A stretch of DNA of 64,000 nt from Lachnospiraceae bacterium (lineage in GTDB: Bacteria; Bacillota; Clostridia; Lachnospirales; Lachnospiraceae), in NCBI GenBank assembly GCA_024403435.1, contig JAKSRV010000001.1, positions 3,856 to 67,855 of the forward strand, given 5' to 3'. Within the stretch, counting starts at the first letter, position 1; each line of letters opens with the position of its first letter. This document shows positions 4,039-54,778 of the stretch, piece after piece. Under the pieces are notes generated by a model. It did no database searches and was not told the origin of the DNA. It was given only the letters and a program-made list of their open reading frames with translations. The position numbers were made by a program, and so were the translations under genes.

Positions 4039-4959
4039 TCAATTCCATTTGTCTCTGATAACATATTGAGGCGAATTATTCATACAAATATACATTCTTC
4101 CGACATACTCGCCTATGAATCCAAGCATAATAAGAATCATTCCGCTAAAAAATACAATCGCGCTCATAATTGCCGAAAAACCTACCGTAACATCCGGAAG
4201 GACAAATTTTTTGATAATAGTGTAAATACCGTACATAAATCCCAAAATAGCGGATGTAATTCCTATACTCGTAGCTATTCTGAGAGGCTTAACCGAAAAT
4301 GCCGTGAATCCGTTGAACCAAAGGGCAATCAGTTTACCGAATGTATAACCGGACCTTCCGATTTCTCGCTCTCTATGTGTGACGTCAACATTAGTGATAT
4401 GTTTGGTTGAACGAAGCACCAGACCTATTACATAAGGATATGAATATTCATACCTGATCATCTCTTCAACCACAAATCTCTTAACAGCGAAATAACTTGA
4501 TACATACAAATCAGCAGGTTTATTGAGCATCGAACGTGTCATTCGCTCATTTACCATACTTCCGAAATTACGAAAGCCCGAATGTTGCTTGTGCGCGTAT
4601 CTCGCATATACTGCGTCAAAGCCTTCATCTATTTTTTCAAGCAGCTTACCCACTTCATTGGCAGGTGTCTGTCCGTCATCATCGAGGCATACAACAATAT
4701 CTCCCGTAGCTTCTCTGAGGCCTGCCATCAGTGCAGAATGTTGACCAAAGTTTCTCGCAAATGATAATCCGTGAATATATGATTTTTCATCACACATCTC
4801 TCTAATCACATTAGCTGTATTGTCAGGTGAACAGTCATTTACCAACACCAGGTCATATTCATATTTACCGAGACCATTCATGGTCTCCTCAATCTCAGCC
4901 ACAACTCCGGGCAAAGTCTTTTCAGATCTGTAACACGGAATAACAAAACTAACCTTCAT
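4039..4959 (-). CDS. GT2 polyprenol-phosphate glycosyltransferase (GtrB/ArnC-like)
   Basis: VIPCY, VND.S.D, RNFGQH.A, DDDGQ.P motifs and two C-terminal TM helices ending GEYVGR. Confidence 0.88.
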   Translation of the reverse strand: MKVSFVIPCYRSEKTLPGVVAEIEETMNGLGKYEYDLVLVNDCSPDNTANVIREMCDEKSYIHGLSFARNFGQHSALMAGLREATGDIVVCLDDDGQTPANEVGKLLEKIDEGFDAVYARYAHKQHSGFRNFGSMVNERMTRSMLNKPADLYVSSYFAVKRFVVEEMIRYEYSYPYVIGLVLRSTKHITNVDVTHREREIGRSGYTFGKLIALWFNGFTAFSVKPLRIATSIGITSAILGFMYGIYTIIKKFVLPDVTVGFSAIMSAIVFFSGMILIMLGFIGEYVGRMYICMNNSPQYVIRDKWN

Positions 4960-5007
4960 TTTATATATCAGCCTTTACATTTATTATATATGTATTAAGT
5001 ACAATAA

Positions 5008-5967
5008 TTATCTCTCTATATTTTCTTCCGCACGTAAAATACTCTTTTTACGCTCATTGGTACTTACGTAACGATATTCAAAATCTTTCTTGTCCTTATC
5101 GTTCAGTACACTTAATACCATTCCCGAGAAAAATGATATTATTCCCGAAAGCATCACGAATCCGCACGCAAACAAAGTAGGGAATCTGGGTACCAGCCCC
5201 GTCTCACAAAACTCTATAACGACAGGAATCATGAATCCAAGTGCAACCACAAACAAAATAGCGCCCAACAAGCCGAAGAAATTCATAGGCTTATAATTTT
5301 TATAAAGAGATATCATCTTACGGATAACCTTCATACCATCGGAATAAGTATTCAGCTTAGAGACACTTCCCTCAGGACGATCACGATATTCCACAATCAC
5401 GTTGTCAACCTGGAGATTATAATTCACAGCATGAATAGTCATCTCCGTCTCAATCTCAAAACCTTTCGAGAATACCGGATAGGTCTTGACAAATTCATAT
5501 GAAAAAGCTCTGTAGCCAGTCATTATATCTTTAATATCAGACTTAAACAATGAATTAATGCATCCCCTCATAAGGCTGTTGCCAAAATTATGAAACGGTC
5601 GCTTATTCTCGGTAAAATATGTGGATGAAAGTCTGTCTCCAACCACCATATCTGCATTATGCTCAAGGACATGATTTACTATTTCACGTGCGCAATCCAA
5701 CGGATATGTATCATCACCATCTATCATCAGATAACATTCAGCATCTACTTCTCTGAACATTCTGCGGATTACATTACCTTTACCCTGTTTATACTCATTT
5801 CTGACTATTGCGCCGGCAGCTTCAGCCAGTTCGGCCGTTCTGTCTTTTGAATTGTTGTTGTACACATATACCGTCGCTTCAGGCAATACCCGGCGTGCGT
5901 CGCGAACAACTTTTTCAATAGTTTTTTCTTCATTATAGCAGGGAATAAGCACTGCAATTCTGTCCAT
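5008..5967 (-). CDS. GT2 DPM1-like polyprenol-phosphate glycosyltransferase
   Basis: IPCYNEE, GKGNV, DGDDTY, D..TGYRAF and FEIETE motifs, two C-terminal TMs. Start at MDRIAV after GAGGTG. Confidence 0.88.
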   Translation of the reverse strand: MDRIAVLIPCYNEEKTIEKVVRDARRVLPEATVYVYNNNSKDRTAELAEAAGAIVRNEYKQGKGNVIRRMFREVDAECYLMIDGDDTYPLDCAREIVNHVLEHNADMVVGDRLSSTYFTENKRPFHNFGNSLMRGCINSLFKSDIKDIMTGYRAFSYEFVKTYPVFSKGFEIETEMTIHAVNYNLQVDNVIVEYRDRPEGSVSKLNTYSDGMKVIRKMISLYKNYKPMNFFGLLGAILFVVALGFMIPVVIEFCETGLVPRFPTLFACGFVMLSGIISFFSGMVLSVLNDKDKKDFEYRYVSTNERKKSILRAEENIER

Positions 5968-6131
5968 AAATATAAACACCTCATGTTCTTACAGCTATCG
6001 TAATACATACAGATTTTATTATAACATATAACCTTTGCTTTTTCACATTCGTTCTAATAGAATATATTATAATATATAATAATTTATGTTTATAAGATTT
6101 ACTTATAATTCTCACATAATTAAGGATTGCT

Positions 6132-8474
6132 ATGGCTGATAACAAGAACAACGAAAAATTCAAACCTGAAATCATCCTCTATTGGCTCTTCCCTGTTATA
6201 GGATTATTCATACCTATAATTTATTATATCTTCAACAATCATCCTGTGCTGTCTCCCGAACTGACAGAAATCATAGCTTACACGCAATATCTGGCCGAAA
6301 ACAATTCCCACAGTTATATAGATACATGGGATACATCCATCACAATACTGCCACTATCCGTTAAATACTTTTTGACAGTTTATTCTGCCGGTGTGCCTTC
6401 ATGGCGCAGTGCGCTTGAATATTCTGTATTTACCTGCTACTCACTTATGGGAGTTTCATTCCTTCTTTTTGTATACTCATTGAAAGCTCAAAAGATTACA
6501 GCTTATATAATAAGTGCCTGTGCAATCGTTGCTATCGGTTTTGTTTCAGTCATTACTGCGCATACAGCCAACAGTTTTATGCTTGCTGTAACCATCATCT
6601 TTTTGACTGCTGCTCCTATTTTGCTCGGCGTACGCTCTCACGTTAAGCTTCCCGCCAAGACCTTGATTTCTGTCTTGTGCATACTTCCCACGTTGCTCTT
6701 TCTCATCGCATGCGGTGTCAATTCCGGGCAGCGCTCTGTAAGTGAAATGATAAAAAATGAGATCAAAACTACCGTCACCGGCATTTCTAATCTTCAAAAA
6801 AATACTGATATGATTGACAGTGAGTCGGTTGCTGCAGGATTGGTTTCTTATCTGAGCAGCCATAACTATCCGGCAATTTCATCAGATGCTTATACGGCAA
6901 ATATTCTGTCGGTTTGCTCAGAACGACAAATCCTCATTCCCACCGCCCCCATATTGAATGATCTCACTTCTCCTACACAAGAAAACTGCCCGTATATTTC
7001 TACGGAAAATATAATCGATTCAAAATCTTCTTTTATGTATATAATCGACAATTCAAGGATTGCCGATTACAATGAATATTTCATTCTTGCAGAAGAAAAA
7101 TACTCTGATGAATACTACACCGTATACAGTTTTTCAAGAAGTGATTATCTGTCAAATTCAAATATAATCTCCGATTTGCATGAACTGAATGAATATACCT
7201 ACGATACCGTATTACTCAGCATGTATGATATCTCTAACTACAACATGGATTACTTTCCCACCTATATGGGTTGGAATTGCAAGCCTACAAAAAATATCCT
7301 CACATCCACAGATGTGATAAATACTTATAACCAATTCATTTTTTCAGGCAAAAGAACCATCAACCAATATCTGTTCTGTATCGATCCGTATATCATTTAT
7401 GAGTCCTTGGGATTCGATAGCAAGACCTACTCCTCAGAAATTTACGACTCTGTCATAGAGATGATTGATGATAACCCGACAACAACATTCTATTTATATT
7501 TTCCTTCATACAGCATCAACCATTTCCGAAACTATACAGCCACAGATTTCAGCAATCTGCGAACCGCATACAAAATCCTTGCCGATGAATTGGCTCAATA
7601 TGACAACGTCAAACTGTACTATTCAGGTTACGAAGAATATATCTATAACAATACCTATTTGTACGAAGACGGATCCGATTGCCTGATGCATTATGACACC
7701 GAAAATGCTTTTCTTTTGGAAAATCTCGCAGACAATACCCTCATAGATGCAGATGAATTGGTTGATTACGTGGACCTACTGATAAGCAATATTCAAAGTC
7801 CCGACAACATGACCGACTCAACGTATGATTTATCAGAATATTGTACTGTATACTGTGGAGACAGCATACTTGCGCTTATCAGCGACAATACCGGTATCCC
7901 ATATATCATCAGTAATTTCTCCGGTATGGGCTGCATATTGAGGGCAATCGGCGGATCAAATGCCGCTACTGTTGATGGCAATGAAATGTCTCTCAAATAT
8001 CAATTGAACCCCGATATCATCAACAGTGAAATTGAAGCCTTCGGCATGTCAGAAAAAAAATTGCTGTTTGTCATAGAATTCGGACTAAACGATTATTTTG
8101 TCGGACTTCCGATAAATAATCCTCGCGACAAGTATGATGAATATACCTATTCCGGAATTATTCGTTCCTCAATTGAATTAATCCGCGAAGAATGGCCCGA
8201 CAGTCAAATACTTGTTATAGTTCCCGGATATATTACTATGCGGCAAAACGGCAATGAACGCGTTTCTCCCAAAGGCGGAATCCTTGATGATTATCGCAAG
8301 GCTGCGCAAAAGATTATAGACGAATACGGCTTATACAGTATCAATCTGTGTGAGATAGGCATTACACAGGAAAATTCCGATACATATCTTAACGATCAGG
8401 TTCATTACAATAGTTTAGGCCGATACTATGTGGCACGCGCTATAATGGAATATATATGCTCAGAAGTTAAATAA
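6132..8474 (+). CDS. Membrane protein with C-terminal SGNH/GDSL hydrolase domain
   Basis: About 5 N-terminal TM segments. SGNH blocks: GDS (YCGDSI), G (IGGS), G.ND (FGLND), D..H (DQVH). Confidence 0.75.
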   Translation: MADNKNNEKFKPEIILYWLFPVIGLFIPIIYYIFNNHPVLSPELTEIIAYTQYLAENNSHSYIDTWDTSITILPLSVKYFLTVYSAGVPSWRSALEYSVFTCYSLMGVSFLLFVYSLKAQKITAYIISACAIVAIGFVSVITAHTANSFMLAVTIIFLTAAPILLGVRSHVKLPAKTLISVLCILPTLLFLIACGVNSGQRSVSEMIKNEIKTTVTGISNLQKNTDMIDSESVAAGLVSYLSSHNYPAISSDAYTANILSVCSERQILIPTAPILNDLTSPTQENCPYISTENIIDSKSSFMYIIDNSRIADYNEYFILAEEKYSDEYYTVYSFSRSDYLSNSNIISDLHELNEYTYDTVLLSMYDISNYNMDYFPTYMGWNCKPTKNILTSTDVINTYNQFIFSGKRTINQYLFCIDPYIIYESLGFDSKTYSSEIYDSVIEMIDDNPTTTFYLYFPSYSINHFRNYTATDFSNLRTAYKILADELAQYDNVKLYYSGYEEYIYNNTYLYEDGSDCLMHYDTENAFLLENLADNTLIDADELVDYVDLLISNIQSPDNMTDSTYDLSEYCTVYCGDSILALISDNTGIPYIISNFSGMGCILRAIGGSNAATVDGNEMSLKYQLNPDIINSEIEAFGMSEKKLLFVIEFGLNDYFVGLPINNPRDKYDEYTYSGIIRSSIELIREEWPDSQILVIVPGYITMRQNGNERVSPKGGILDDYRKAAQKIIDEYGLYSINLCEIGITQENSDTYLNDQVHYNSLGRYYVARAIMEYICSEVK

Positions 8475-42223: not shown

Positions 42224-45076
42224 TCAGCCCTTATCAAGCATGCGCTTGACGTATTTTCCCGTGTAGGAAAGCTTATTCTTGGCAATCTCCTCAGGTGTAC
42301 CTTCCGCCACTACTGTACCGCCTCGATTGCCTCCCTCAGGGCCCATATCAATCAAGTAATCAGCGCATTTGATTACATCAAGATTGTGCTCGATTACCAC
42401 AACGGTATTGCCTCCGTCAGCCAGTCTCTGCAATATCTCTACCAGCTTGTGTACATCAGCAAAATGAAGACCGGTTGTAGGCTCGTCCAATACATAGATT
42501 GTCTTGCCTGTGCTTCTCTTCGAAAGCTCTGTAGCAAGCTTTATTCTCTGCGCCTCACCGCCTGAAAGCTGTGTTGAAGGCTGTCCCAGCTTGATATAAC
42601 CCAAGCCTACATCATAAAGAGTCTGAATCTTGCTGCGAATCGAAGGCATATTTTCAAAGTAGCTCAATGCCTCTTCGACAGTCATATCCAGAACATCATA
42701 AATATTCTTACCCTTATATCGGCATTCCAATGTCTCGCGGTTGTATCTTTTTCCCTCACATACCTCGCAGGGAACATATACATCCGGAAGGAAATGCATC
42801 TCAATCTTTACGATACCGTCTCCGCTGCAGGCTTCACAACGTCCACCTTTGATATTAAAAGAAAAACGTCCCTTGGTGTAACCCTTGGCCTTGGCCTCTG
42901 CGGTAGAAGCAAACAAATCTCTTATAGTGTCGAAGACTCCTGTGTATGTTGCAGGATTCGATCTGGGTGTGCGTCCTATAGGACTCTGATCGATGCAGAT
43001 GATTTTATCGAGCTTGTCCACACCCTCTATTGTTTTGTGTTTACCCGGAATCGTATGTGCACGATTAAGTTTCTTTGCGAGACTCTTATACAAGATTTCA
43101 TTAACCAAAGAAGACTTACCGCTTCCGGATACTCCGGTCACACAAGTTAATACACCTGTAGGGAACTTGACATCGACATTTTTCAGATTATTCTCAGTTG
43201 CTCCCTTTACGGTCAACCAACCTGTAGGCTTTCTTCTTGAAGAAGGAATCGGAATTTTCTTGGCACCGCTGAGATATTGTCCGGTGATAGAGTTGGGATT
43301 TTTCATAATCTCCTGTGCAGTACCCACTGCCACAACTTCTCCACCGTGTGCACCCGCTCCGGGTCCGATATCAACTATATAATCTGCCTCGAGCATAGTA
43401 TCTTCGTCATGCTCTACGACAATCAATGTATTTCCCAAATCTCTGAGATTCTTAAGTGTAGCAAGAAGCTTGTCGTTGTCTCTCTGGTGTAATCCGATTG
43501 AAGGCTCATCAAGGATATAACATACTCCTACGAGTCCCGATCCTATCTGGGTAGCCAGTCGGATTCTCTGTGCTTCACCACCGCTGAGAGTCGCCGTTGC
43601 TCTTGAAAGCGAGAGATACTCCAATCCAACATTTACCAAAAATCCCACTCTTGCCTTTATCTCTTTGAGAATCTGTTCTCCGATAAACTGTTGCTGCTTT
43701 GAAAGCTCGAGTTTGTTCAAAAAGTCAGCCAAATCTACAATTGAAAGGTCTGTAACCTCATATATATTTCTGTCTCCGACAGTAACTGCCAGTGACTCTT
43801 TTTTCAATCTGCGACCGCCGCAATCCGCGCAGGGAGTAATACGCATGAAGGTCTCATACTCTGCACGCGCACTCTCACCTCCGGTCTCTCTGTATCGTCT
43901 CTCAACGTTTCTGATCAGACCCTCGAATGCAATCTTATACACACCGGTTCCGCGCTGACCCGAATAATGAACATTCACCTCTTTGTCAGTGCCGTAGAAA
44001 AGTATTTTTTTAATTTCCTCCGGATAATCCTCAATCGGGGTATCCAGACTGAATTTGAATTCTTTGCTCAGCGCTACAAGCGTTGCATTGGTGAAGCTGC
44101 CTGCCTGGTTGGCAGATTGCCATCCGTTGACGATAATAGCACCATCATTGATAGACACGGACATATCCGGAATCATCAAATCTATATCAAATTCCATCTT
44201 ATAACCGAGTCCCGCACAAACCGGACATGCTCCGAACGGATTGTTGAAGGAAAAGCTTCTTGGCTCCACCTCTGAAATACTTACTCCGCAATCCGGGCAG
44301 GCATAACTGGTGCTGAAGGTCATCATCTCACCGCCGATTATATCCACATAAAGCAATCCCTCTGCAATACCAAGTGCATTCTCGATAGAGTCAGTCAGTC
44401 GGCTCTCTATTCCGGGCTTAACCACCAGACGATCAATTATAATCTCAATATTGTGCTTATTATTCTTCTCGAGGCTAATATCCTCAGTCAAATCATACTG
44501 AATACCATCAATTCTGACACGCGCATAGCCACCGCGTCTTGCCTTTTCGATAACCTTCTCATGCTGACCCTTGCGTCCTCTTACTACAGGAGCCAACACC
44601 TGGAATTTGGTTCCTTCCTCAAGTCCGCAGATTTTATCCACTATCTGGTCTACAGTCTGCTTTTCTATAGCTCTTCCGCATTCGGGGCAGTGAGGTATAC
44701 CGATTCTTGCATACAGCAATCTGAAATAATCATATATCTCAGTGACAGTACCCACAGTGGATCTGGGGTTTCGGTTTGTAGACTTCTGGTCGATGGAAAT
44801 GGCAGGTGAAAGTCCCGAAATATACTCAACATTCGGTTTCTCCATCTGTCCCAGAAACTGTCTTGCATATGAAGACAATGATTCCATATATCTTCTCTGA
44901 CCTTCTGCATAAATTGTATCAAAGGCCAGAGATGATTTGCCGCTTCCTGACACGCCTGTCATAACCACAAGTGCATCTCGAGGTATTTCGACCTCGATAT
45001 TTTTTAAGTTATTCTCTTTTGCTCCCCTTACCACAATCTTATTCTTGGGAAGCATCTTAATACTGTTAGTATCCAT
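42224..45076 (-). CDS. uvrA: Excinuclease ABC subunit A
   Basis: Two ABC ATPase modules ([22 protein letters not shown]) and Zn fingers. Confidence 0.98.
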
Positions 45077-45081
45077 ATTAA

Positions 45082-46722
45082 TTATCTAAGACCATTATTC
45101 TGTACTGTGCTCTGAGGATTATGCTGAGCCATCTGCTGAGGCTGCTGCATAGGCTGCGCAGAAGGCTGCTGCCCGGGCACACGCATTGCCTGATTCATAC
45201 CTGTCTGCTGTTGCTGTCCCTGCACTCTGGCCTGAGCCATCTGCTGCTGATACATCTGCGGCTGTCCGTAACCCGCCTGAGGCATTGCACTTCTTCTCAT
45301 GATCGGTGCATCTGCCAACAGTTCGAATAAATCAGCTTCAGGATTGATGTATTTTTCAAAAATATCCTCAAAGGAATCTGTAAAGTATCTGAATGAATTC
45401 GGGAATACATCCTGCTTCAGGTAGAAAATTACCTTGTTCATAAATACAGCTCTGTCCTCAAGCTCATGTTCACGAATAAAGTAGGGTCCCAGCTTTTTGT
45501 TCTCTGCAATAAGCTTGTCAGACTGTCTTCCCTCTCTCTTGGCCTCCAGATTCTCTGCATCGATTGCATGGTTAACAAGAGTAGAGAATGTCGGCCAGTT
45601 TCTGTGGAGCTGTCCACGCGCCTCAAGCTTAGCCGCAAAAGCACCACTGATAGTATTGGGATCTGCGAATACCTCTGTGAGAGGTCTGCGTCCGTAGAAA
45701 AGACTGCGTTCCTGTCTCATTGAGTCGGGAAGAATATTGTAATCGATCTGAACATATTCCATCTCAAAACGTCTCTTGAACGCACTGTCCATAACGAAAA
45801 TATTATCATCGGCTGTATTCATGGTTGCTACAATATTAAAGTTTGAAGGTATCCAGATTCTTCCGTCAAAGAAAATATTTTTCATCCAAGGGTCACGTGA
45901 GAAATAGTTACCTATATCTCTGTTTACGATGGTATATGATGACTTACCGAGCGGTCCGCGGTCCAACAGCTGGAATACATCTCCGAAAATAGAAGGTGCA
46001 TTACCACGGTTAATTTCCTCAATAATCAGGAAATAGCGCTCCTGAGGATTAAGAAATGCAGCCTTCAAAAGTTCGGTAAAAGGACCGGGTACAAACGCAT
46101 AGTCCAAAGGTCTGTCAGGTGATACCAAGGGCTTGATACAACCCACGAATTCACCGTAAGTATATGCAGGATGGAAGATAACTCTCTTGATGTGAGTACG
46201 CATATTCGCATCATCGGGAAATTCTTTCTTAAGCATCTGATCTACTCTGTGTGACTTACCGGTACCGGGAGCACCGTAGAACACCTTCTGAATAGGCTTC
46301 ATAACAACTTCCTGGAAGTGATATTCCTCCATGTTGGTTGTTTTTACTTCCTTCTTGGGCTCGACCTTACGCGCAAGATAAAACTGCGCGTGAACATCGG
46401 GAGCAACCGAATGTCCGCCATACTCCAAGAAGTACAGATACAATTCAAATGCCGCACTGATTGTTCCGTGACCATCCATATCCAGCTGCTCAAACTCCGG
46501 ATACTTTTTGATCATCTCCACCTTCTCTTCAAAGTTTGAATAGTCGCATATAAAGAACAGATTATTGATTGGCAAATAAGGTATATTCGAACACTGCTTT
46601 CTCAGTGAATAGCAATACGCCGAAATCTCATTGTCGGAATAAATTCTCATTCCATCCTCGTGAACCTGTTTACGAAGCCAGTCTCTAAATTCCTTCTCAT
46701 TTTCTGCAGGTGTCATTCCCAT
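45082..46722 (-). CDS. McrB-family AAA+ GTPase (LlaJI.R1-like) with Gln-rich C-terminal tail
   Basis: Walker [24 protein letters not shown], Walker [18 protein letters not shown], McrB signature [14 protein letters not shown]. Start 46722 follows AAGGGG. Confidence 0.88.
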
Positions 46723-46868
46723 AAGTTTTTCCCCTTTTCTCATGAATCAAGCAGGATATTTCCCCTCGATTTGCGCATTTTTATCGTTTTATATAACTCT
46801 TCTCTATAAATATGTTTTTTAGAAAACTAATTTTAATAAATCTATTTACCGTGTTTTTCTTCTCTGTG

Positions 46869-46910
46869 ATTATAACAAAACTATCGGCATGCCTTAAGGC
46901 AATGCCGATA
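46869..46910 (-). terminator. Hairpin after the patatin gene, followed by an extended -10 box
   Basis: TATCGGCAT..GCC / GGC..ATGCCGATA stem (46882-46910), then GTTTTG. TGT-TATAAT at 46869-46877 on the minus strand. Confidence 0.55.
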
Positions 46911-46914
46911 TTTC

Positions 46915-47769
46915 TTATTCAGCCATAAAAGCCCGCAGCTCATCAATCTTATTGTCCATAAGATTACGAGCATAACTGTAGCAGTTTTCAAGCTTTTTCT
47001 TGTTTGTTTCAAAATGACCGACCATGGTAGTTTCAGGCTTGATAATAAGCGCACGGCCTTCTCTCTCAAGTCTCTCGATCAACTCCATCTGACGTTCATA
47101 TTCTTCCTTGCGTCCGAGAATGGTCTCGGCAAGCTTCGGATACTTTTTCTTGTAAAACATATTCACGAACGGCTTATATTTTCTGTAATCCGTAGCATGA
47201 TGAATCTCTGCTTTTGTAAGAATGATTACAACCTTATCACATCCGCAATCCAACGCACGCTGAACCGGCAAAGAATCGGCAAGACTTCCGTCCATGTATA
47301 TTTTTCCGCGCAATTTCTTAGGCGGGCAAATAAACGGCAAAGAACAAGACGCCTGGCAAAAATCCAAACATTCCATATCTTCGCTGAATTCACTCACATA
47401 CTCTGCCTCACCCGTTTCGCAATTGACAACAACAACTTCCCACAATGTATCACTGTTGTGATACGCCTTAAAATCATAAGGGAAATTGTTCATAGCATAA
47501 TTGGTGATGCACTCCTGAAGATCAACCACCTTGCCGGTTCTCAGAATGCTTGGCAGACCGTAAAAGCTACGGGTTCCCTCATGTGTAAGAACCTTCTTGG
47601 AACGACCGATCTGATGTGAAACAAATCCTGATGCATTGCTCACACCTACAGAGACACCTGACACATACGGGAAATCTATATTATGTTCCATCAGACTATC
47701 GAGAACACCGGCTGTAAAGATTCCTCTTATAGCTCCGCCCTCAAGAATCAATCCTGTCTTAGAACTCAT
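46915..47769 (-). CDS. Patatin-like phospholipase
   Basis: LEGGAIRG oxyanion loop, GVSVG nucleophile elbow, DGS catalytic Asp. Confidence 0.92.
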   Translation of the reverse strand: MSSKTGLILEGGAIRGIFTAGVLDSLMEHNIDFPYVSGVSVGVSNASGFVSHQIGRSKKVLTHEGTRSFYGLPSILRTGKVVDLQECITNYAMNNFPYDFKAYHNSDTLWEVVVVNCETGEAEYVSEFSEDMECLDFCQASCSLPFICPPKKLRGKIYMDGSLADSLPVQRALDCGCDKVVIILTKAEIHHATDYRKYKPFVNMFYKKKYPKLAETILGRKEEYERQMELIERLEREGRALIIKPETTMVGHFETNKKKLENCYSYARNLMDNKIDELRAFMAE

Positions 47770-47810: not shown

Positions 47811-49298
47811 TTATTTAACAAGATTTCTTGCAATCTTCATTGAACCTGTGCGAGGGAAATCCTCTGTGCGAACAACAACCTTTGATACACGCTTAAATGC
47901 GGGAAGTGTTGCGTTTACAGCCTCAGCAACAGCCTCAACAGCCTGCTGAATCTCCTCGGGACTCTTACCTGCCACAGCAGGCTCAAAAGGAAGTACCTCG
48001 ATACCGATGACAGTGGCACCGTTTACCTCCATCTCACGTGCGAGACAATCCTTTACAATATCATGCTTACAGAATGCATCTTCAATTTCCTCGGGAGATA
48101 CATTCTCACCGTTTGAAAGAATAATCAAATTCTTGATTCTACCGGTAATGTAGATAAATCCTTCCTCGTCAAATCTGACAAGGTCTCCGGTTTTGAGCCA
48201 ACCGTCCTCAAGAACCTTAGCAGTTTCCTCGGGATTACCTGCATAACCAAGCATTACATTATCGCCCTTAATCCACAACTCGCCATCAACAACCTTGTAT
48301 TCCTGTTCGGGATAAATCTTACCCATTGAATCTGGCTTTTCGGTAATATTAATGTTGGCAGATGTAAGGTTGGCACCTTCGGTAAGTCCGTATCCGGGAT
48401 AGAGATCGATATCAAACTCAGCAGCATACTTGATAAGCCTGGGAGGAACGGGTGCCGCTCCAACGTTCATGCTCTTCAAATCGCCAAGGAATGCTTTACC
48501 CTTCATCTTTGCAATAGACAGAATAATCTCAACCAGTCCGGGAACCAATACAAGATAAGTGGGTCTGAGCACCGGTATCTGTCCGACAGCCGCTCTCATA
48601 TCGGTAATTGCAAAAGCAAGCGATCCCGAATAAAGTACAGAAAGGAAGCCCATTACAGAACCGAAAATATGTGACATGGGAAGGATAACCATACATCTCT
48701 GTCCGATAGCACCGTGAGGATGATAGCAACCATTAAGTGCTCCTCTCATAAGTGCTCCGTGAGTAAGTATTGCTCCCTTGGGTGCACCGGTAGTTCCACC
48801 TGTGAAGTAAATAGCAGCAACCGATTCCTTCTTAACCTCACCGTAAGCAGCCTCATTGTCTGCAATAGTGGTAGAAGAAACTACTGCGCATGCCACCTTT
48901 GATGCTACCTCGGCAAACTCATCGGCTACAACCATAAGACCGAAGCCAAACTTCATTGATATTCCTGTAACCTGCTCCTGTCCAAGCTGTACAGGAAGCA
49001 TGGTCAAAATTGCTCCGTAAGATGGAACAGCGAGGAACCACTCCATAGCATCAAGATCGTTACGTGCAAGTACACCAACCTTATCGCCGGGCTTAACACC
49101 GTTTGCAGCCAACACTGCACGACGCTTTGCGACACGACTCACAAGCTCTTTGAACGAGTATGTAATCTTTCCGTCACTTGTAGCGGGCATATCCTCAAAG
49201 TCCTTCTCTACCTTCTGAAGGAACTCGGGGAAAGTAGGTACATAATAAATCAGTTTCTGCTCTTCAGGCGAAAGCATATCAACAAAATAGTTTGACAT
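47811..49298 (-). CDS. AMP-dependent long-chain acyl-CoA synthetase
   Basis: YFTGGTTGAPKG, GYGLTE, W.KTGDL, GR.KNLI.LSNGENV.PEEIE and C-terminal Lys (TGSMKI). Confidence 0.9.
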   Translation of the reverse strand: MSNYFVDMLSPEEQKLIYYVPTFPEFLQKVEKDFEDMPATSDGKITYSFKELVSRVAKRRAVLAANGVKPGDKVGVLARNDLDAMEWFLAVPSYGAILTMLPVQLGQEQVTGISMKFGFGLMVVADEFAEVASKVACAVVSSTTIADNEAAYGEVKKESVAAIYFTGGTTGAPKGAILTHGALMRGALNGCYHPHGAIGQRCMVILPMSHIFGSVMGFLSVLYSGSLAFAITDMRAAVGQIPVLRPTYLVLVPGLVEIILSIAKMKGKAFLGDLKSMNVGAAPVPPRLIKYAAEFDIDLYPGYGLTEGANLTSANINITEKPDSMGKIYPEQEYKVVDGELWIKGDNVMLGYAGNPEETAKVLEDGWLKTGDLVRFDEEGFIYITGRIKNLIILSNGENVSPEEIEDAFCKHDIVKDCLAREMEVNGATVIGIEVLPFEPAVAGKSPEEIQQAVEAVAEAVNATLPAFKRVSKVVVRTEDFPRTGSMKIARNLVK

Positions 49299-49403: not shown

Positions 49404-51383
49404 TCAAGTGGATGAGAGCTTTGCGCGAAGCTCAAGCATCTTGTCACGAAGCTCTGCTGCCGTCTCAAAATCAAGCTCTGCCGAGGCTTTTTTCATCTGT
49501 TTTTCAGTCTTGTCAATCAACTTTTGGAGTTCTGCACGGCTCATTGATTCAGGATCCTTCTCCCAAGCAACTTCCTCCTTTGCAATCTCCTTTGAAATGC
49601 TGATAAGATCACGGACAGACTTTTTGATAGTAGTCGGAGTAATACCGTTTGCCTCATTATAAGCCTTCTGAATCTCTCGACGTCTGTTGGTCTCCCCAAT
49701 AGCTTTTTTCATTGAATCGGTCATCACGTCCGCATACATTATTACACGGCCTTCTGAGTTTCTGGCTGCACGACCTATAGTCTGAACCAGCGAAGTCTCA
49801 CTGCGCAGGAAACCTTCCTTGTCCGCATCGAGTATTGCTACCAATGTAATCTCCGGTATATCGAGACCTTCTCGAAGCAAATTGATTCCGACCAGCACGT
49901 CAAAAACATCCAAACGCATATCTCTGATAATCTTGGTACGTTCAAGCGCATCTATATCCGAATGCATATATTTAACACGCACTCCCGCCTCTCTGAGATA
50001 AGCAGTCAAATCTTCAGCCATGCGCTTTGTAAGTGTCGTTATCAGAACTTTATTTTTATTACCGGTTTCCTTACGTATCTCGCCCAAAAGATCGTCAATC
50101 TGTCCCTCAACAGGGCGCACATCAACCTCAGGGTCCAGCAATCCCGTGGGTCTGATTACCTGCTCGGTACGAAGAAGCTCATGCTCTTCCTCGTATACCG
50201 ACGGTGTCGCTGATACAAAAAGCATCTGCCCTATGTGGTCCTCAAATTCCGAGAAATTAAGCGGTCTGTTATCAAGTGCACTGGGCAGTCTGAATCCGTA
50301 ATCAACCAAAGTCAATTTACGAGATCTGTCTCCCGCATACATTCCTCTGATCTGTGGAATGGTAATATGCGACTCATCAACTATAATCAGGAAATCATCG
50401 GGAAAGAAATCCAGCAGTGTCATCGGCGGTTCTCCGGGCTTTGCTCCGCTCATGTGTCTGGAATAGTTTTCTATTCCGGAACAAAATCCAGTCTCCCTGA
50501 GCATTTCAACATCAAAATTGGTTCGCTCGGAAATACGCTGTGCCTCGATGAGTCTGTCCTCTCCCTTGAAATATTTAACACGCTCCTCCAACTCAGCTTC
50601 GATGGCATCACATGCAGTCTTAATATGATCCGGTGCAATAACGTAATGCGAAGCCGGGAATACAGCTATATGTTCAAGAGTAGCCTTAACCTTACCGTTC
50701 AAGGGCTCTACTTCAGTAATTCGATCTATCTCATCGCCGAACCATTCTATGCGAATGAGGTAGTCTCCTCCCTGCGCCGGATAGAATTCCATGGTATCGC
50801 CGTGGACAGTGAACACGCCCGGCTTCTTTTCCATATCGTTGCGCTCATACTGCATATCAATAAAATTTCTGATTACATCGTCACGCCCAAACTCCATACC
50901 GGGACGCAGAGACAGAATCATTCCCTTGTATTCGTCGGGACTTCCGAGTCCGTATATGCAAGATACCGACGCAACCACAACCACATCCTTTCTCTCCGCC
51001 AAAGAAGCGGTTGCCGAAAGGCGCAGTTTCTCTATCTCGTCGTTTATAGAAGAGTCCTTGGCAATATATGTATCTGACTGTGGCACATAAGCCTCAGGCT
51101 GGTAATAATCGTAATAGGATACAAAATACTCTACTGCGTTCTCGGGAAAGAATTCCTTCATTTCACCATAGAGCTGACCCGCCAATGTCTTGTTATGCGA
51201 GATAATAATCGTAGGCTTGTTCAGTGCGGCAATAACATTCGCCATGGTAAACGTTTTACCGGAACCTGTAACACCCAACAGTGTCTGAAATTGATTACCG
51301 TCTTTGAATCCTTGCACCAGTTCCTCTATCGCTTGCGGCTGATCTCCCGTAGGCTTATAAGGAGCGTGTAATTTGAACTCCAT
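49404..51383 (-). CDS. uvrB: Excinuclease ABC subunit B
   Basis: [35 protein letters not shown] and C-terminal UVR motif. Confidence 0.98.
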
Positions 51384-51489: not shown

Positions 51490-51518
51490 ATTATATCACA
51501 CAGATGACGATTCGTCTA
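51490..51518 (-). promoter_or_regulatory. SigA promoter of uvrB
   Basis: TAGACG-N17-TATAAT with an extended TG, lying within a GU-containing hairpin (about 51463-51510). Confidence 0.65.
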
Positions 51519-51526
51519 TTAATATC

Positions 51527-51540
51527 AGAACATTTGTTCG
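51527..51540. promoter_or_regulatory. LexA (SOS/Cheo) box
   Basis: CGAACAAATGTTCT on the minus strand matches Firmicute GAAC-N4-GTTC; lies just upstream of the uvrB -35 box. Confidence 0.85.
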
Positions 51541-51549
51541 GATATCAAA

Positions 51550-51880
51550 TTATCTCATTTTGCCTCTTGCATTCAGCTTATAGAATGCATCGGTCTTTGC
51601 AACATCCTGCAAATGCTCGTTATAAATCTGCAGCTCACTGTTAAGTGTCTCAAGTTCAAATGTTGTCTCGCGAATGAAAGTAGCCATTCTTGACGCAAGA
51701 GGGAGCTTGGTCATCACAGTATTGTCATCCAACACTCCCGTCTTCTTTCTCGCCTTTCCTTCCCCAGAATACCTTACGCGCGGTACAGTAGAAAATGTGC
51801 AAAATTTCTCACTGAAAACGGTCGGTGATTCGGAATTGATTGTACGGTAAAATTCTACAGCCTTAACCCATGAATTATTA
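51550..51880 (-). pseudogene. Probable remnant of a sensor diguanylate cyclase gene
   Basis: Coiled coil ending LQDVAKTDAFYKLNAR resembles the L..LA.TD.LT.L.NR entry into a GGDEF domain, but a stop follows. No convincing SD/start. Confidence 0.4.
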
Positions 51881-52018
51881 TCGCATTCACGGATAATATC
51901 TGCCGAAAACAAATGAACTTTTACTATATTTCGTTTATATAAATAGCGGTATATGTATTGTGCTATTTGACAAAAAATGAATACCATTTGAGGCCAACAC
52001 TAATTGTATTAACATACT

Positions 52019-52080: not shown

Positions 52081-53013
52081 TTAGTAGCACACATTGAATG
52101 AATCCATGATATCATCAAACATTCCCTGGTCACTTCCGAAACGAGTTGAGAAGAACTGGAAATAAACAACTACATCGCTCTGATAATAAATAACGGTGTA
52201 ACCGCTGATATTGCCGTTAAGGACCTCATATCTGTAAAACTTCTTATTATCTGCATTGTAGTAGATATCAGAGTCCACCACTTCATAATCATCATAGATA
52301 CCTTCTTCGAGAACCTCAATTGTATTAGCCTCATTAACACCTGAGAACCAAAGAGTACTTATAAACACATACTCTATATCTGTAGCAAAAGATGCCTTGG
52401 TCTCGGAAGATGTACCATACTGCTCAAAGTTTGTAGGAAGAGTAATTGATACTCCACCCCATGTTACCTGTCCGTTAACAAAATCATTCTCGGGGAGGTC
52501 ATCATAGCAATTCTCGCAGTATACATAGGTATTGGTTCCTGTCCATTTATGAGGAAGTCTTTCACCTTCCTCCTCTCCGCAGTAATAACAATACTTAGGC
52601 GAATAACATGTAGCCTCTATCCAATCATGCTCACCCTTCTGATGATCCGATTCACCGCATACATAGCAGAATCTCTCTTCAATACAGGTAGCAAATGACC
52701 ATTCGTGTCCCTTAGCTTCACCGTTGGTCTCTCCGCATACATAACATGTTGAAGGTTCTGTACATGTAGCATCGCTCCACTTATGTCCGAGAGCATCTCC
52801 CTTGGTCTTGCCACACAAATCACATGTCTTAGGCTCGGTACATGTTGCATCATTCCATTCATGGTCGAGCTTATCACCCTGTGTCTTTCCACACTTAGCA
52901 CAGGTCTGAGGCTCCTTACAGGTAGCATCTTCCCAATCATGCTTCAGGCAACATCCTGTCATCATTATTGCTGCCATAACCGTACATGCAAAAATAACAA
53001 TCCTCTTTTTCAT
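52081..53013 (-). CDS. Lipoprotein with 26-aa Cys/His repeats, paralog A
   Basis: Signal peptide MKKRIV...MMTG-C; five H-x-W-x2-ATC-x5-C-x2-CG repeats plus a partial sixth; ~140-aa C-terminal domain. Confidence 0.85.
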   Translation of the reverse strand: MKKRIVIFACTVMAAIMMTGCCLKHDWEDATCKEPQTCAKCGKTQGDKLDHEWNDATCTEPKTCDLCGKTKGDALGHKWSDATCTEPSTCYVCGETNGEAKGHEWSFATCIEERFCYVCGESDHQKGEHDWIEATCYSPKYCYYCGEEEGERLPHKWTGTNTYVYCENCYDDLPENDFVNGQVTWGGVSITLPTNFEQYGTSSETKASFATDIEYVFISTLWFSGVNEANTIEVLEEGIYDDYEVVDSDIYYNADNKKFYRYEVLNGNISGYTVIYYQSDVVVYFQFFSTRFGSDQGMFDDIMDSFNVCY

Positions 53014-53044
53014 ATCTTTCCTTCCTATATCACTACACAATAAA

Positions 53045-53094
53045 CAAAAAAACCAATACAAGGATTAAGTATAACACCTTAATCCTCGTATTGG
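53045..53094 (-). terminator. Intrinsic terminator between the lipoprotein paralogs
   Basis: CCAATAC.AGGATTAAG / CTTAATCCT.GTATTGG stem followed by a T run on the minus strand. Confidence 0.75.
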
Positions 53095-53115: not shown

Positions 53116-54051
53116 TCAGTAATACACATAGAATGAATCGAGTGTATCCACCATCAGCTTGTCAGCAGCTTCCCATGACGTTGCCCAACATTCCATGTAT
53201 ACAAATACATTAGTCTCATAATATACTATGCAATATCCTTTTTGAGCACTACTGTAATCAACTTCATAAACACGAAACTCGGTTCCGTCAGAGTTTGCAT
53301 AATCCATACTTCCGGTAACATTATAACCGTTCTCAGGAAGACCGCTGTCATAGTAATGAAATACTTCATATTCGCTGGCACCACTGTTCCAATGCGAAGA
53401 GGCCGTAAACATTAGTCCATCACCCATGAATACTCCAATACTGTCATCTGATGTTGATGACACATTAAAATTACTCGGAAGTGACAGTCCTATACCGTTC
53501 CAAAGCACCTCACCGTTTTCGCAAGAGTTTTCGGGCATATCTTCCAAACATTTCTCACAATACAGATTGGTTTCTCCATGCCATGTATGAGGAAGTCTCT
53601 CTCCCTCGTGTGCATCACACAGCCAACAGCTTTTCGGCATAAAACATGTTGCATCAGCCCACATATGCTCACCGTAACCGTTGGTCTCGCCACAGTTATA
53701 GCAATATATCTCATCAACACATGTGCCGGTAGACCACTCATGTCCGGTTGCGATGCCCTCTGTAGCACCGCATACACTACATATCATTGGTAATATGCAA
53801 GTGGGTTTTGAAAAATCATGACCAAGAGCATCGCCCTTTTTCTTTCCGCACAGTTCACATGTTTTGGGTTCTGTACAAGTAGGAGCTTTCCACTCATGGT
53901 CCAGTGTGCTTCCCTCTGTTTTGCCGCATTTTGAACATGTCTTAGGATTCTTGCAGGTAGCTTCCTCCCAATCATGCTTCAGGCAACAACCTGTCATAAA
54001 CAATGTCATCAAAACCACACCGACTATAAATGTTACTCTCTTACTCATCAT
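53116..54051 (-). CDS. Lipoprotein with 26-aa Cys/His repeats, paralog B
   Basis: MMSKRV...FMTG-C signal peptide, same repeat architecture as paralog A, divergent C-terminal domain, SD AGGGGG. Confidence 0.85.
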   Translation of the reverse strand: MMSKRVTFIVGVVLMTLFMTGCCLKHDWEEATCKNPKTCSKCGKTEGSTLDHEWKAPTCTEPKTCELCGKKKGDALGHDFSKPTCILPMICSVCGATEGIATGHEWSTGTCVDEIYCYNCGETNGYGEHMWADATCFMPKSCWLCDAHEGERLPHTWHGETNLYCEKCLEDMPENSCENGEVLWNGIGLSLPSNFNVSSTSDDSIGVFMGDGLMFTASSHWNSGASEYEVFHYYDSGLPENGYNVTGSMDYANSDGTEFRVYEVDYSSAQKGYCIVYYETNVFVYMECWATSWEAADKLMVDTLDSFYVYY

Positions 54052-54073
54052 TTTCCCCCTTACAGAATAAGAA

Positions 54074-54778
54074 TTACTTGCTCTCTTTTGCACCCTCAAG
54101 GAGCTTGTATACACATGCTGCAAGTGCTGCGCCTACAAGAGGTCCTACGATGAATACCCATACACACTCGAGAGCACCGGTACTTCCGTTTACAATTGCG
54201 TTCATAATAGCGGGTCCAAGGCTTCTTGCAGGGTTAACGCTGGTACCGGTAAGACCGATACCAAGAATATGTACTACTACAAGAGTAAGGCCGATTACAA
54301 GACCACCGAAGGAACCATGCTTTGCCTTTGCTGAAGTTACACCAAGAATAGCAATTACAAAAATAAATGTAAGAACAATCTCAGTGATAAGTCCTGCTGC
54401 GATGCTTTCGTGTACACCGCCTAAGCCGTTGGTTCCCATTCCGCCTGTCTTGTCGGCAACGCCGCCAAGATTAAAGATTGCTGCAAGTACTCCTGAACCT
54501 GCAAATGCACCAAGGCACTGTGCAACAACATATGCGCAGAAATCCTTTCCACTCATTCCTCCTGAAAGAAGAACTCCAAGAGATACTGCGGGATTGATAT
54601 GGCAACCGGAAATATTTCCGATGCTGTATGCCATTGCTACGATTGTAAGTCCAAATGCAAGAGCGGTAAGAATGTATCCACCACCCGATACCGCATCACA
54701 TCCTACAAGCATAGCGGTTCCGCAACCAAGAATAACCAAAGTCATTGTTCCGATAAATTCTGCTACGTACTTTTTCAT
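54074..54778 (-). CDS. aqpZ: Aquaporin (MIP family, AqpZ-like)
   Basis: AEFIGT, SGCHINPAVS and GTSVNPARS motifs; 6 TMs. Confidence 0.9.
   Translation of the reverse strand: MKKYVAEFIGTMTLVILGCGTAMLVGCDAVSGGGYILTALAFGLTIVAMAYSIGNISGCHINPAVSLGVLLSGGMSGKDFCAYVVAQCLGAFAGSGVLAAIFNLGGVADKTGGMGTNGLGGVHESIAAGLITEIVLTFIFVIAILGVTSAKAKHGSFGGLVIGLTLVVVHILGIGLTGTSVNPARSLGPAIMNAIVNGSTGALECVWVFIVGPLVGAALAACVYKLLEGAKESK

Follow-up and report, generated by a model that had tools for sequence, protein, structure and literature searches.

We analysed a window of 64,000 nucleotides, the whole stretch of DNA presented here, from contig JAKSRV010000001.1 of a Lachnospiraceae bacterium. Its minus strand contains, in order, uvrB, an acyl-CoA synthetase gene, a patatin gene, a gene for an AAA+ NTPase of the McrB family, and uvrA. 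The fourth gene has no adjoining McrC here or in any other genome that carries it (0 of 52 carriers), and is called solo McrB below. The carriers are 16 genomes from the genus of the source genome (g1, the source genus) and 36 from a second Lachnospiraceae genus (g37, the second genus). Solo McrB represents a real, conserved family without an earlier description in the literature searchable here; subscription papers, bioRxiv supplements and the supplements of PMC11090510 lay outside that search. It is very probable that the gene is conserved, lacks a partner in cis and has no tie to uvrA. The features of the locus are:

45082..46722, minus strand: solo McrB-family (LlaJI.R1/BsuMI.R2-like) AAA+ NTPase, 546 residues; the longest open reading frame (ORF) begins at 46743
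46420..46713, minus strand: helical N-terminal domain of solo McrB, predicted to bind DNA (about residues 4-101; AlphaFold2 pLDDT 94)
45316..46311, minus strand: AAA+ domain of solo McrB with Walker A, helix-2 insert, Walker B, MNTAD loop and KRRF arginine pair
45085..45300, minus strand: glutamine-rich disordered tail of solo McrB (residues 475-546, 32% glutamine, pLDDT below 50), specific to a subclade
42224..45076, minus strand: uvrA, the downstream neighbour in the source genus only
46880..46912, minus strand: strong hairpin and, after it, a U-rich run in the interval between patatin and solo McrB, a possible partial terminator
46915..47769, minus strand: patatin/DUF6363 gene, in the insert between uvrB and uvrA
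47811..49298, minus strand: acyl-CoA synthetase-like (fadD-like) gene, in the same insert
49404..51383, minus strand: uvrB, three genes upstream of solo McrB
51490..51539, minus strand: promoter-like site of uvrB with a LexA-type box (-35 at 51518, -10 ending at 51490, box at 51528-51539)

The probable start of solo McrB is the ATG at 46722, which has a purine-rich ribosome site upstream and at which homologs also start. The ORF coordinates bear out the 5-bp spacing between its stop and the start of uvrA (45076) reported in the original prediction, a reading of the DNA letters that overlooked uvrB at 49404-51383 on the same strand. The close abutment is due to the glutamine-rich tail, which lengthens the gene in this subclade. 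The tail is found in the small closest subclade only and evolves fast (dN 0.40-0.62 vs 0.04-0.05 in the core); most orthologs stop near residue 468, a few tens of bases (at most about 90) short of uvrA. The same reading had found no McrC, PD-(D/E)xK, HNH or methylase gene in the window, and this agrees with the ORFs scanned using Pfam and, for 45 of them, PADLOC, a scan that mostly left aside ORFs below 150 residues. PADLOC matches on these 45 ORFs were limited to a RecD2 helicase, an ABC ATPase and a 218-residue ORF with a weak PsyrT/ShosT match. The larger ORFs are housekeeping, polysaccharide, flagellar and division genes according to Pfam and PADLOC.

The AlphaFold model, built from a 60-row alignment, begins with a helical N-terminal domain (about residues 4-100), which a loose linker joins to an McrB-type AAA+ domain, and ends in a disordered tail. 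The McrB fold is present with both its helix-2 and pre-sensor-1 inserts, and Foldseek ranks Bacillus subtilis YdiS (BsuMI.R2) first, followed by the McrB proteins of E. coli and Thermococcus. By profile, solo McrB matches AAA_5 in Pfam (E 2e-10) and REase_II, a type II restriction profile, in PADLOC (E 1e-45); the match to the NCBIfam McrB model is far under the family cut-off. All motifs named in the original prediction, Walker A, Walker B, NTAD and AFKRRF, are found in the protein. The catalytic residues (Walker A, Walker B, the NxxD loop and the trans arginine pair) are invariant in 60/60 rows of the homolog alignment, the aromatic residue after the P-loop is Y or H in 59/60 rows, and the pore-lining helix-2 insert is near-invariant (K196, P197, P204, L205, D206, Y207). 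The NTAD motif had been read as a signature of GTP specificity, which has to be abandoned: NxxD is the catalytic sensor-1 loop, its aspartate is also required for basal hydrolysis, and the linker that precedes the AAA+ domain sets the base choice of McrB (PMC7680126).

The helical N-terminal domain, earlier put at about 110 residues, is modelled as residues 4-101 approximately. It bears a weak likeness to the core-binding (SAM-like) fold of tyrosine recombinases: the top structural matches, of middling score, are XerD (Z 6.6), an integron integrase (6.4) and an archaeal Xer (6.0), in each case the core-binding domain, with a root-mean-square deviation of about 3 across 76-81 residues. Weak Phage_int_SAM matches to the domain occur in 9 of 35 relatives, and an atlas search with homolog P0119, where every match was below 0.9, gave a Phage_int_SAM_1 cluster at 0.83 as a lead. 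A PDB sequence search with the domain found no match, and none of 41 members matched a Pfam family at E <0.01. A profile of the domain matches 318 proteins. We scanned 76 longer proteins from 150 listed and found AAA_5 in 51, EVE in 5, HNH_2 in 3 and Mrr_N in 1. The domain is thus mobile and restriction-associated, probably binds DNA, and is not peculiar to the solo McrB family. It is the same in all carriers of solo McrB, while the partnered relatives have varied N-termini.

The domain spans about 100 residues with the consensus F..W...Q....G..YS..TI..Y..AL...LF...G.G..S.A...Y..FL and is often found in tandem (proteins P0121-P0269). In one partnered relative, a Christensenellaceae record (L044, 8001-10367), the match to the domain lies in a separate ORF upstream of the AAA+ ORF.

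Solo McrB is present in 16 of the 34 source-genus genomes and in 36 of the 201 second-genus genomes sampled. Full-length orthologs, of which the protein collection has many, have about 468 residues and are 46-63% identical outside the closest few; the named ones are all Lachnospiraceae. No ortholog was found in 400 genomes taken one per genus from the family, and an order-level sample of 400 genomes gave two matches, both in the second genus. The plasmid and phage collections held no full-length copy.

In 42 of the 52 carriers no McrC family was found genome-wide. The other ten, all from the second genus (source genus 0/16), contain PF09563 (6) or PF10117 (4), always on other contigs, and 8 of the 11 unlinked McrC loci in carriers adjoin an McrB of their own. 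For the source genome, the Pfam McrC models and custom profiles of 109 partner proteins gave nothing better than E 0.058. In a control, the left-out partners of L123 and L124 were recovered; the left-out profile missed the E. coli-type McrCs of L206 and L207, so the custom profiles are branch-specific. There is no linked C5 cytosine methyltransferase in the loci read, and PF00145 was found in 0/3 source-genus genomes and, unlinked, in 2/2 second-genus genomes. Among distant relatives, 114 of 146 loci have a gene at most 150 bp downstream, mostly McrC-like by clustering, and often methylases upstream. The marks of CoCoNuT systems, NxD and a coiled-coil fusion, are absent from the solo McrBs (NxxD in 60/60), as are the tandem EVE domains and degenerate Walker motifs that mark PcdA. 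For the DUF2357 partner of CoCoNuT systems, PF09823 and PF04411 were found in 0/5 genomes by a search whose controls also went undetected.

In a phylogeny of 118 AAA+ domains, a single clade (SH-aLRT 99) unites the 49 solo rows. The sister is L123, a complete LlaJI-type operon with two C5 methylases, an McrB and a LlaJI-type McrC, which is 46% identical to solo McrB. The tree omits 39 rows with an off-pattern Walker A, plus short or weak rows, all of which score far under L123 on the profile. By this tree, solo McrB is descended once from a methylase-linked LlaJI-type system. Near the solo clade are also two short McrB-like genes of 300-311 residues (L144, 5977-8097; L125, 1867-3577), which lack the N-terminal domain and are followed by a C5 methylase at the position where McrC is expected.

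The ratio of nonsynonymous to synonymous change (dN/dS, Nei-Gojobori) of solo McrB is 0.016-0.095 in 22 pairs, near the values of uvrA and patatin; the values are rough, with dS >1 in many pairs. A ratio near 1, which would have spoken against a maintained function, is thus contradicted in all 22 pairs (<0.1). Solo McrB evolves about 2.5 times faster than UvrA. The McrB and UvrA trees of 33 genomes have 19 of 30 splits in common, and the UvrA tree holds 17 of the 20 strong McrB splits, with one local conflict. The agreement holds in the second genus too, where the genes are unlinked. Carriers make up whole subclades, and the sole non-carrier nested among them is 61% complete. Such a distribution is typical of an old accessory gene with a single gain and losses in some lines. 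We rejected a recent horizontal gain, as the GC content (0.44) and GC3 (0.47) match those of the neighbours. The idea of a domesticated McrB without McrC, put forward in the original prediction, is supported by the 42 carriers without any McrC family, the purifying selection and the vertical descent.

The nearest named system found is LlaJI of Lactococcus lactis plasmid pNP40 (M1, M2, R1, R2), with the AAA+ domains of LlaJI.R1 and solo McrB 32% identical over about 330 residues. Both proteins combine an N-terminal domain with an McrB-like motor, and L123, the nearest relative, shares the four-gene layout of LlaJI. Solo McrB differs in lacking the methylases and the R2 nuclease, in having another N-terminal domain, and in being chromosomal and vertically inherited. 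LlaJI restriction needs both R1 and R2, R1 alone sets the DNA specificity, and LlaJI-type systems act at unmethylated sites (PMC1459862). The best Foldseek match is the B. subtilis YdjA-YdiS model 9a5m (E 1e-21, 33% identity), but BsuMI.R2 and LlaI.R2 differ from solo McrB in that a separate subunit binds the DNA and an McrC-like protein is their partner. These R2 proteins take ATP as well as GTP (Bui 2026), therefore a GTP preference of solo McrB is only a possibility. Compared with them, the fused linker of solo McrB, with its invariant E137 and M140, could restore nucleotide selectivity.

Canonical McrBC of E. coli and T. gammatolerans has the same fold (6hz4, 6ut4-6ut6, E 1e-12) and shares Walker A and B, NxxD, the two arginines and the aromatic after the P-loop. 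Unlike it, solo McrB has no tandem McrC and no recognisable SRA, YTH or EVE reader, and after MNTAD it has E/D-N where canonical McrB has R/K-S and L123 has Q-N. McrB is described as always being in tandem with McrC (Bui 2026). A census of McrB contains a methylase-associated branch, and orphans are named in its methods only, as far as its accessible part goes (PMC11090510). The one studied bacterial exception found in the literature searched is PcdA of Staphylococcus aureus (bioRxiv 10.1101/2023.09.03.556088), also a lineage-restricted McrB without McrC that was co-opted by its host. PcdA differs in its two EVE domains, its degraded Walker motifs and active site, and its lack of a C-terminal helical bundle, whereas solo McrB comes from the methylase-linked branch and keeps every catalytic residue. 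The accessible part of PMC2614495 has nothing on solo McrB. The form McrB-S occurs in PMC3874153.

The best reading of these comparisons is that solo McrB is a co-opted McrB, apparently like PcdA but with intact catalytic residues. In its full form, that the nuclease and methylases of a LlaJI-type motor were lost once and that the motor now serves the host as a non-cutting, DNA-binding nucleotide switch, we consider it about evenly balanced between right and wrong. McrB hexamers alone hydrolyse GTP at a basal rate, McrC repositions NxxD (PMC7680126), and McrC stimulates hydrolysis about 40-fold (Bui 2026). By analogy with this biochemistry, nucleotide binding would assemble a solo McrB hexamer, and without the McrC finger hydrolysis would stay at the basal rate. 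The ring would then serve as a clamp or switch that works slowly and not as a translocating nuclease. The integrase-like N-terminal domains, judged from their predicted fold, would attach to one constant site or structure in the host DNA. Candidate host roles are a regulator, or a nucleoid or division scaffold as with PcdA.

Several observations weigh against this reading. Common helical bundles reach fold-match scores like those of the N-terminal domain (Z 6-6.6), and a Foldseek search with this domain gave nothing under E 1. The domain is common on ordinary McrBs (AAA_5 in 51 of the 76 scanned relatives) and is therefore no mark of domestication. Most genomes are incomplete (the source genome is 81% complete), and three McrC loci in carriers, in G979 and G975, have no McrB within 1.5 kb. 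For the AAA+ domain alone, dN/dS in solo McrB (0.009-0.077) overlaps with that of partnered relatives (0.04-0.37). The gene has also been lost in whole subclades (18/34 in the source genus, 165/201 in the second), so it is not essential.

A first alternative is that the motor works with an unlinked and unrecognised partner, either a finger-bearing activator, an adaptor or a nuclease beyond the reach of the McrC profiles, in the way that MoxR-type AAA+ proteins work with vWA partners. The near-invariant pore-lining insert and the NxxD aspartate that McrC engages, conserved in 60/60 rows, are in line with this, and NorQ and CbbQ come after McrB among the fold matches. However, the aspartate is needed for basal hydrolysis as well, no neighbour is conserved in the 52 loci, and the source genome gave no McrC-like match with Pfam or custom profiles. 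On balance a hidden partner is rather unlikely.

Further support for a partner comes from the sister clade, the source-genus clade without solo McrB, which retains a nuclease-less McrC as an activator. There, an E. coli-type McrB of about 719 residues is followed by an McrC fragment of 140-150 residues, the mini-McrC, whose match to PF10117, a model of 318 positions, is confined to positions 66-196; the nuclease part is therefore missing. The pair occurs in 17 of 34 source-genus genomes, none of which has solo McrB, and one genome (G021) has neither. Both genes are under purifying selection, and orthologs of the 719-residue McrB in four second-genus genomes retain a full McrC. The mutual exclusion is one event on the tree, which suggests, but cannot show, replacement. 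It is a tentative and in our view unlikely idea that a non-cutting McrB motor is needed for one host function that was filled twice, by the solo ring or by McrB plus a mini-McrC activator. If so, domestication of restriction motors would be a recurrent route to new housekeeping machines. Because solo McrB lies in or beside the uvrBA, lexA and dnaK-dnaJ loci, such an undescribed chromosomal function would possibly be stress-linked. In the McrB/mini-McrC loci (L304-L311), the two genes overlap (in L305 they lie at 4471-6630 and 6627-7049), and a GH9 glycoside hydrolase gene and HlyD/FtsX genes are found downstream of them.

A second alternative is a nuclease-free role in genetic conflict, where solo McrB would be a decoy titrating incoming LlaJI-type McrC, much as McrB-S modulates McrBC, a guard covering the sites of such systems, or a roadblock on phage DNA. 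Descent from LlaJI-type systems fits such a role, as do the fusions of the N-terminal domain to McrB, HNH, EVE and Mrr_N domains elsewhere and the separate LlaJI-type pair in 6 of 36 second-genus carriers. The unchanging N-terminal domain, the clade-wide retention, the housekeeping neighbours and the absence from mobile elements are unlike an arms race, and LlaJI-type McrC is found in 0/16 source-genus carriers. We regard this role as distinctly unlikely.

The original prediction went further and proposed a motor that could recognise modified or damaged DNA and use UvrABC in place of McrC, which we considered as an SOS-induced motor that would mark such DNA and pass it to UvrABC. Solo McrB is directly before uvrA in 14 of the 16 source-genus carriers, 4.5 or 6.8 kb off in the other two, and three genomes have uvrB-McrB-uvrA without intervening genes. 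The adjacency spans a saturated synonymous distance. The box at 51528-51539 is the sole perfect GAAC-N4-GTTC, which we take to be the LexA-type consensus, in the 64 kb. As 0.78 are expected by chance, its weight rests on the position at the promoter-like site of uvrB; similar boxes are directly upstream of uvrB in several relatives. One second-genus group is tail to tail with lexA, and UvrA is near universal, so a contact would be compatible with lost adjacency. However, the linkage to uvrAB is not conserved across the family. In the second genus solo McrB precedes uvrA in 0/36 genomes; 8 genomes have their nearest uvrA at a distance of 27-101 kb, 27 have it on another contig, and in 1 none was found. 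The 14 adjacent cases are, by descent, one old inherited insertion. Five non-carriers (L212, L213, L218, L220, L227) have unrelated genes at the uvrB-uvrA junction, and the hairpin at 46880..46912 may damp read-through in the window (z -6.2; 0/200 shuffles equally stable; also in G010 and G027). A complex prediction of solo McrB 1-468 with UvrA 8-535 scored 0.00 with controls that also failed to fold, and speaks neither for nor against contact.

The second genus shows two main contexts: the gene either comes after an ABC-transporter operon and a cytidylate-kinase-like gene and converges with lexA, or it occupies the interval from dnaJ to prmA, where both orientations occur; two genomes have the gene elsewhere. 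Overall there are at least three unrelated neighbourhoods. The loci do vary, as the original prediction had considered for homologs beside McrC, though never with McrC. Of the 19 loci in the dnaJ-prmA group, 17 have their own conserved sigma-70-like promoter site, TTGCA/TTGTCA-17-CATACT, and SOS boxes are not typical of the group. An SOS box at the gene's own start was tried and rejected, being perfect in 1 of 48 upstream regions and with one mismatch in 4. With its own promoters, the moves and the other occupants of the junction, replacement of McrC by UvrABC is unsupported and a handover to it is very unlikely; solo McrB gives no grounds to propose a new repair pathway. Co-transcription with uvrA is likely in the source genus, given the gene order and the LexA-type box at the uvrB promoter, and does not extend to the second genus. 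Under the co-opted motor reading, the gene would have landed in the uvrB-uvrA operon of the source genus and would probably ride along there as a passenger, expressed with its neighbours under LexA. The flat depth in public RNA and other runs, with DNA carry-over possible and no listed contig across the McrB-uvrA junction, is uninformative on co-transcription.

That solo McrB is a decaying relic carried in an operon, as its loss in many subclades and its faster evolution than UvrA might suggest, is hardly credible and is contradicted by the selection result (dN/dS <0.1 in 22/22 pairs), along with the invariant catalytic residues and the retention through several moves.

Having long kept its whole catalytic apparatus with no McrC, the family lends itself to finding out how an McrB ring behaves by itself: whether it can bind DNA or travel along it while the pore is open, and which nucleotide it uses. 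It bears on how defence motors turn into host proteins, and the work defines an unannotated N-terminal domain common on Bacillota McrBs.

Some minor observations concern the regions around these genes. A TGCA-N16-TGCA repeat, a possible operator, lies over the -35/-10 of the solo McrB promoter in 14 of 48 upstream regions (among them L095-L102, L108, L110 and L115-L117). As a genome-wide target it was rejected, as the source genome (G000) has 56 sites compared with 43-71 for like spacers. The inserts in the uvrB-uvrA junction or before uvrA (including L223 and L224) encode an ABC transporter, an acyltransferase, radical SAM and LUD proteins and a chemoreceptor, and in L213 and L218 a LexA-type box is directly before uvrA, after the unrelated inserts. 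Directly upstream of the uvrB promoter, the window has an ORF of 145 residues (51550-51987, minus strand) without a Pfam or NCBIfam match. The window also has two tandem paralogous lipoprotein-like genes (52081-53061 and 53116-54123) of no clear Pfam family, absent from this place in L031 and present in L032, which are characterised by repeated Cys/His units (H.W..ATC..P..C..CG).

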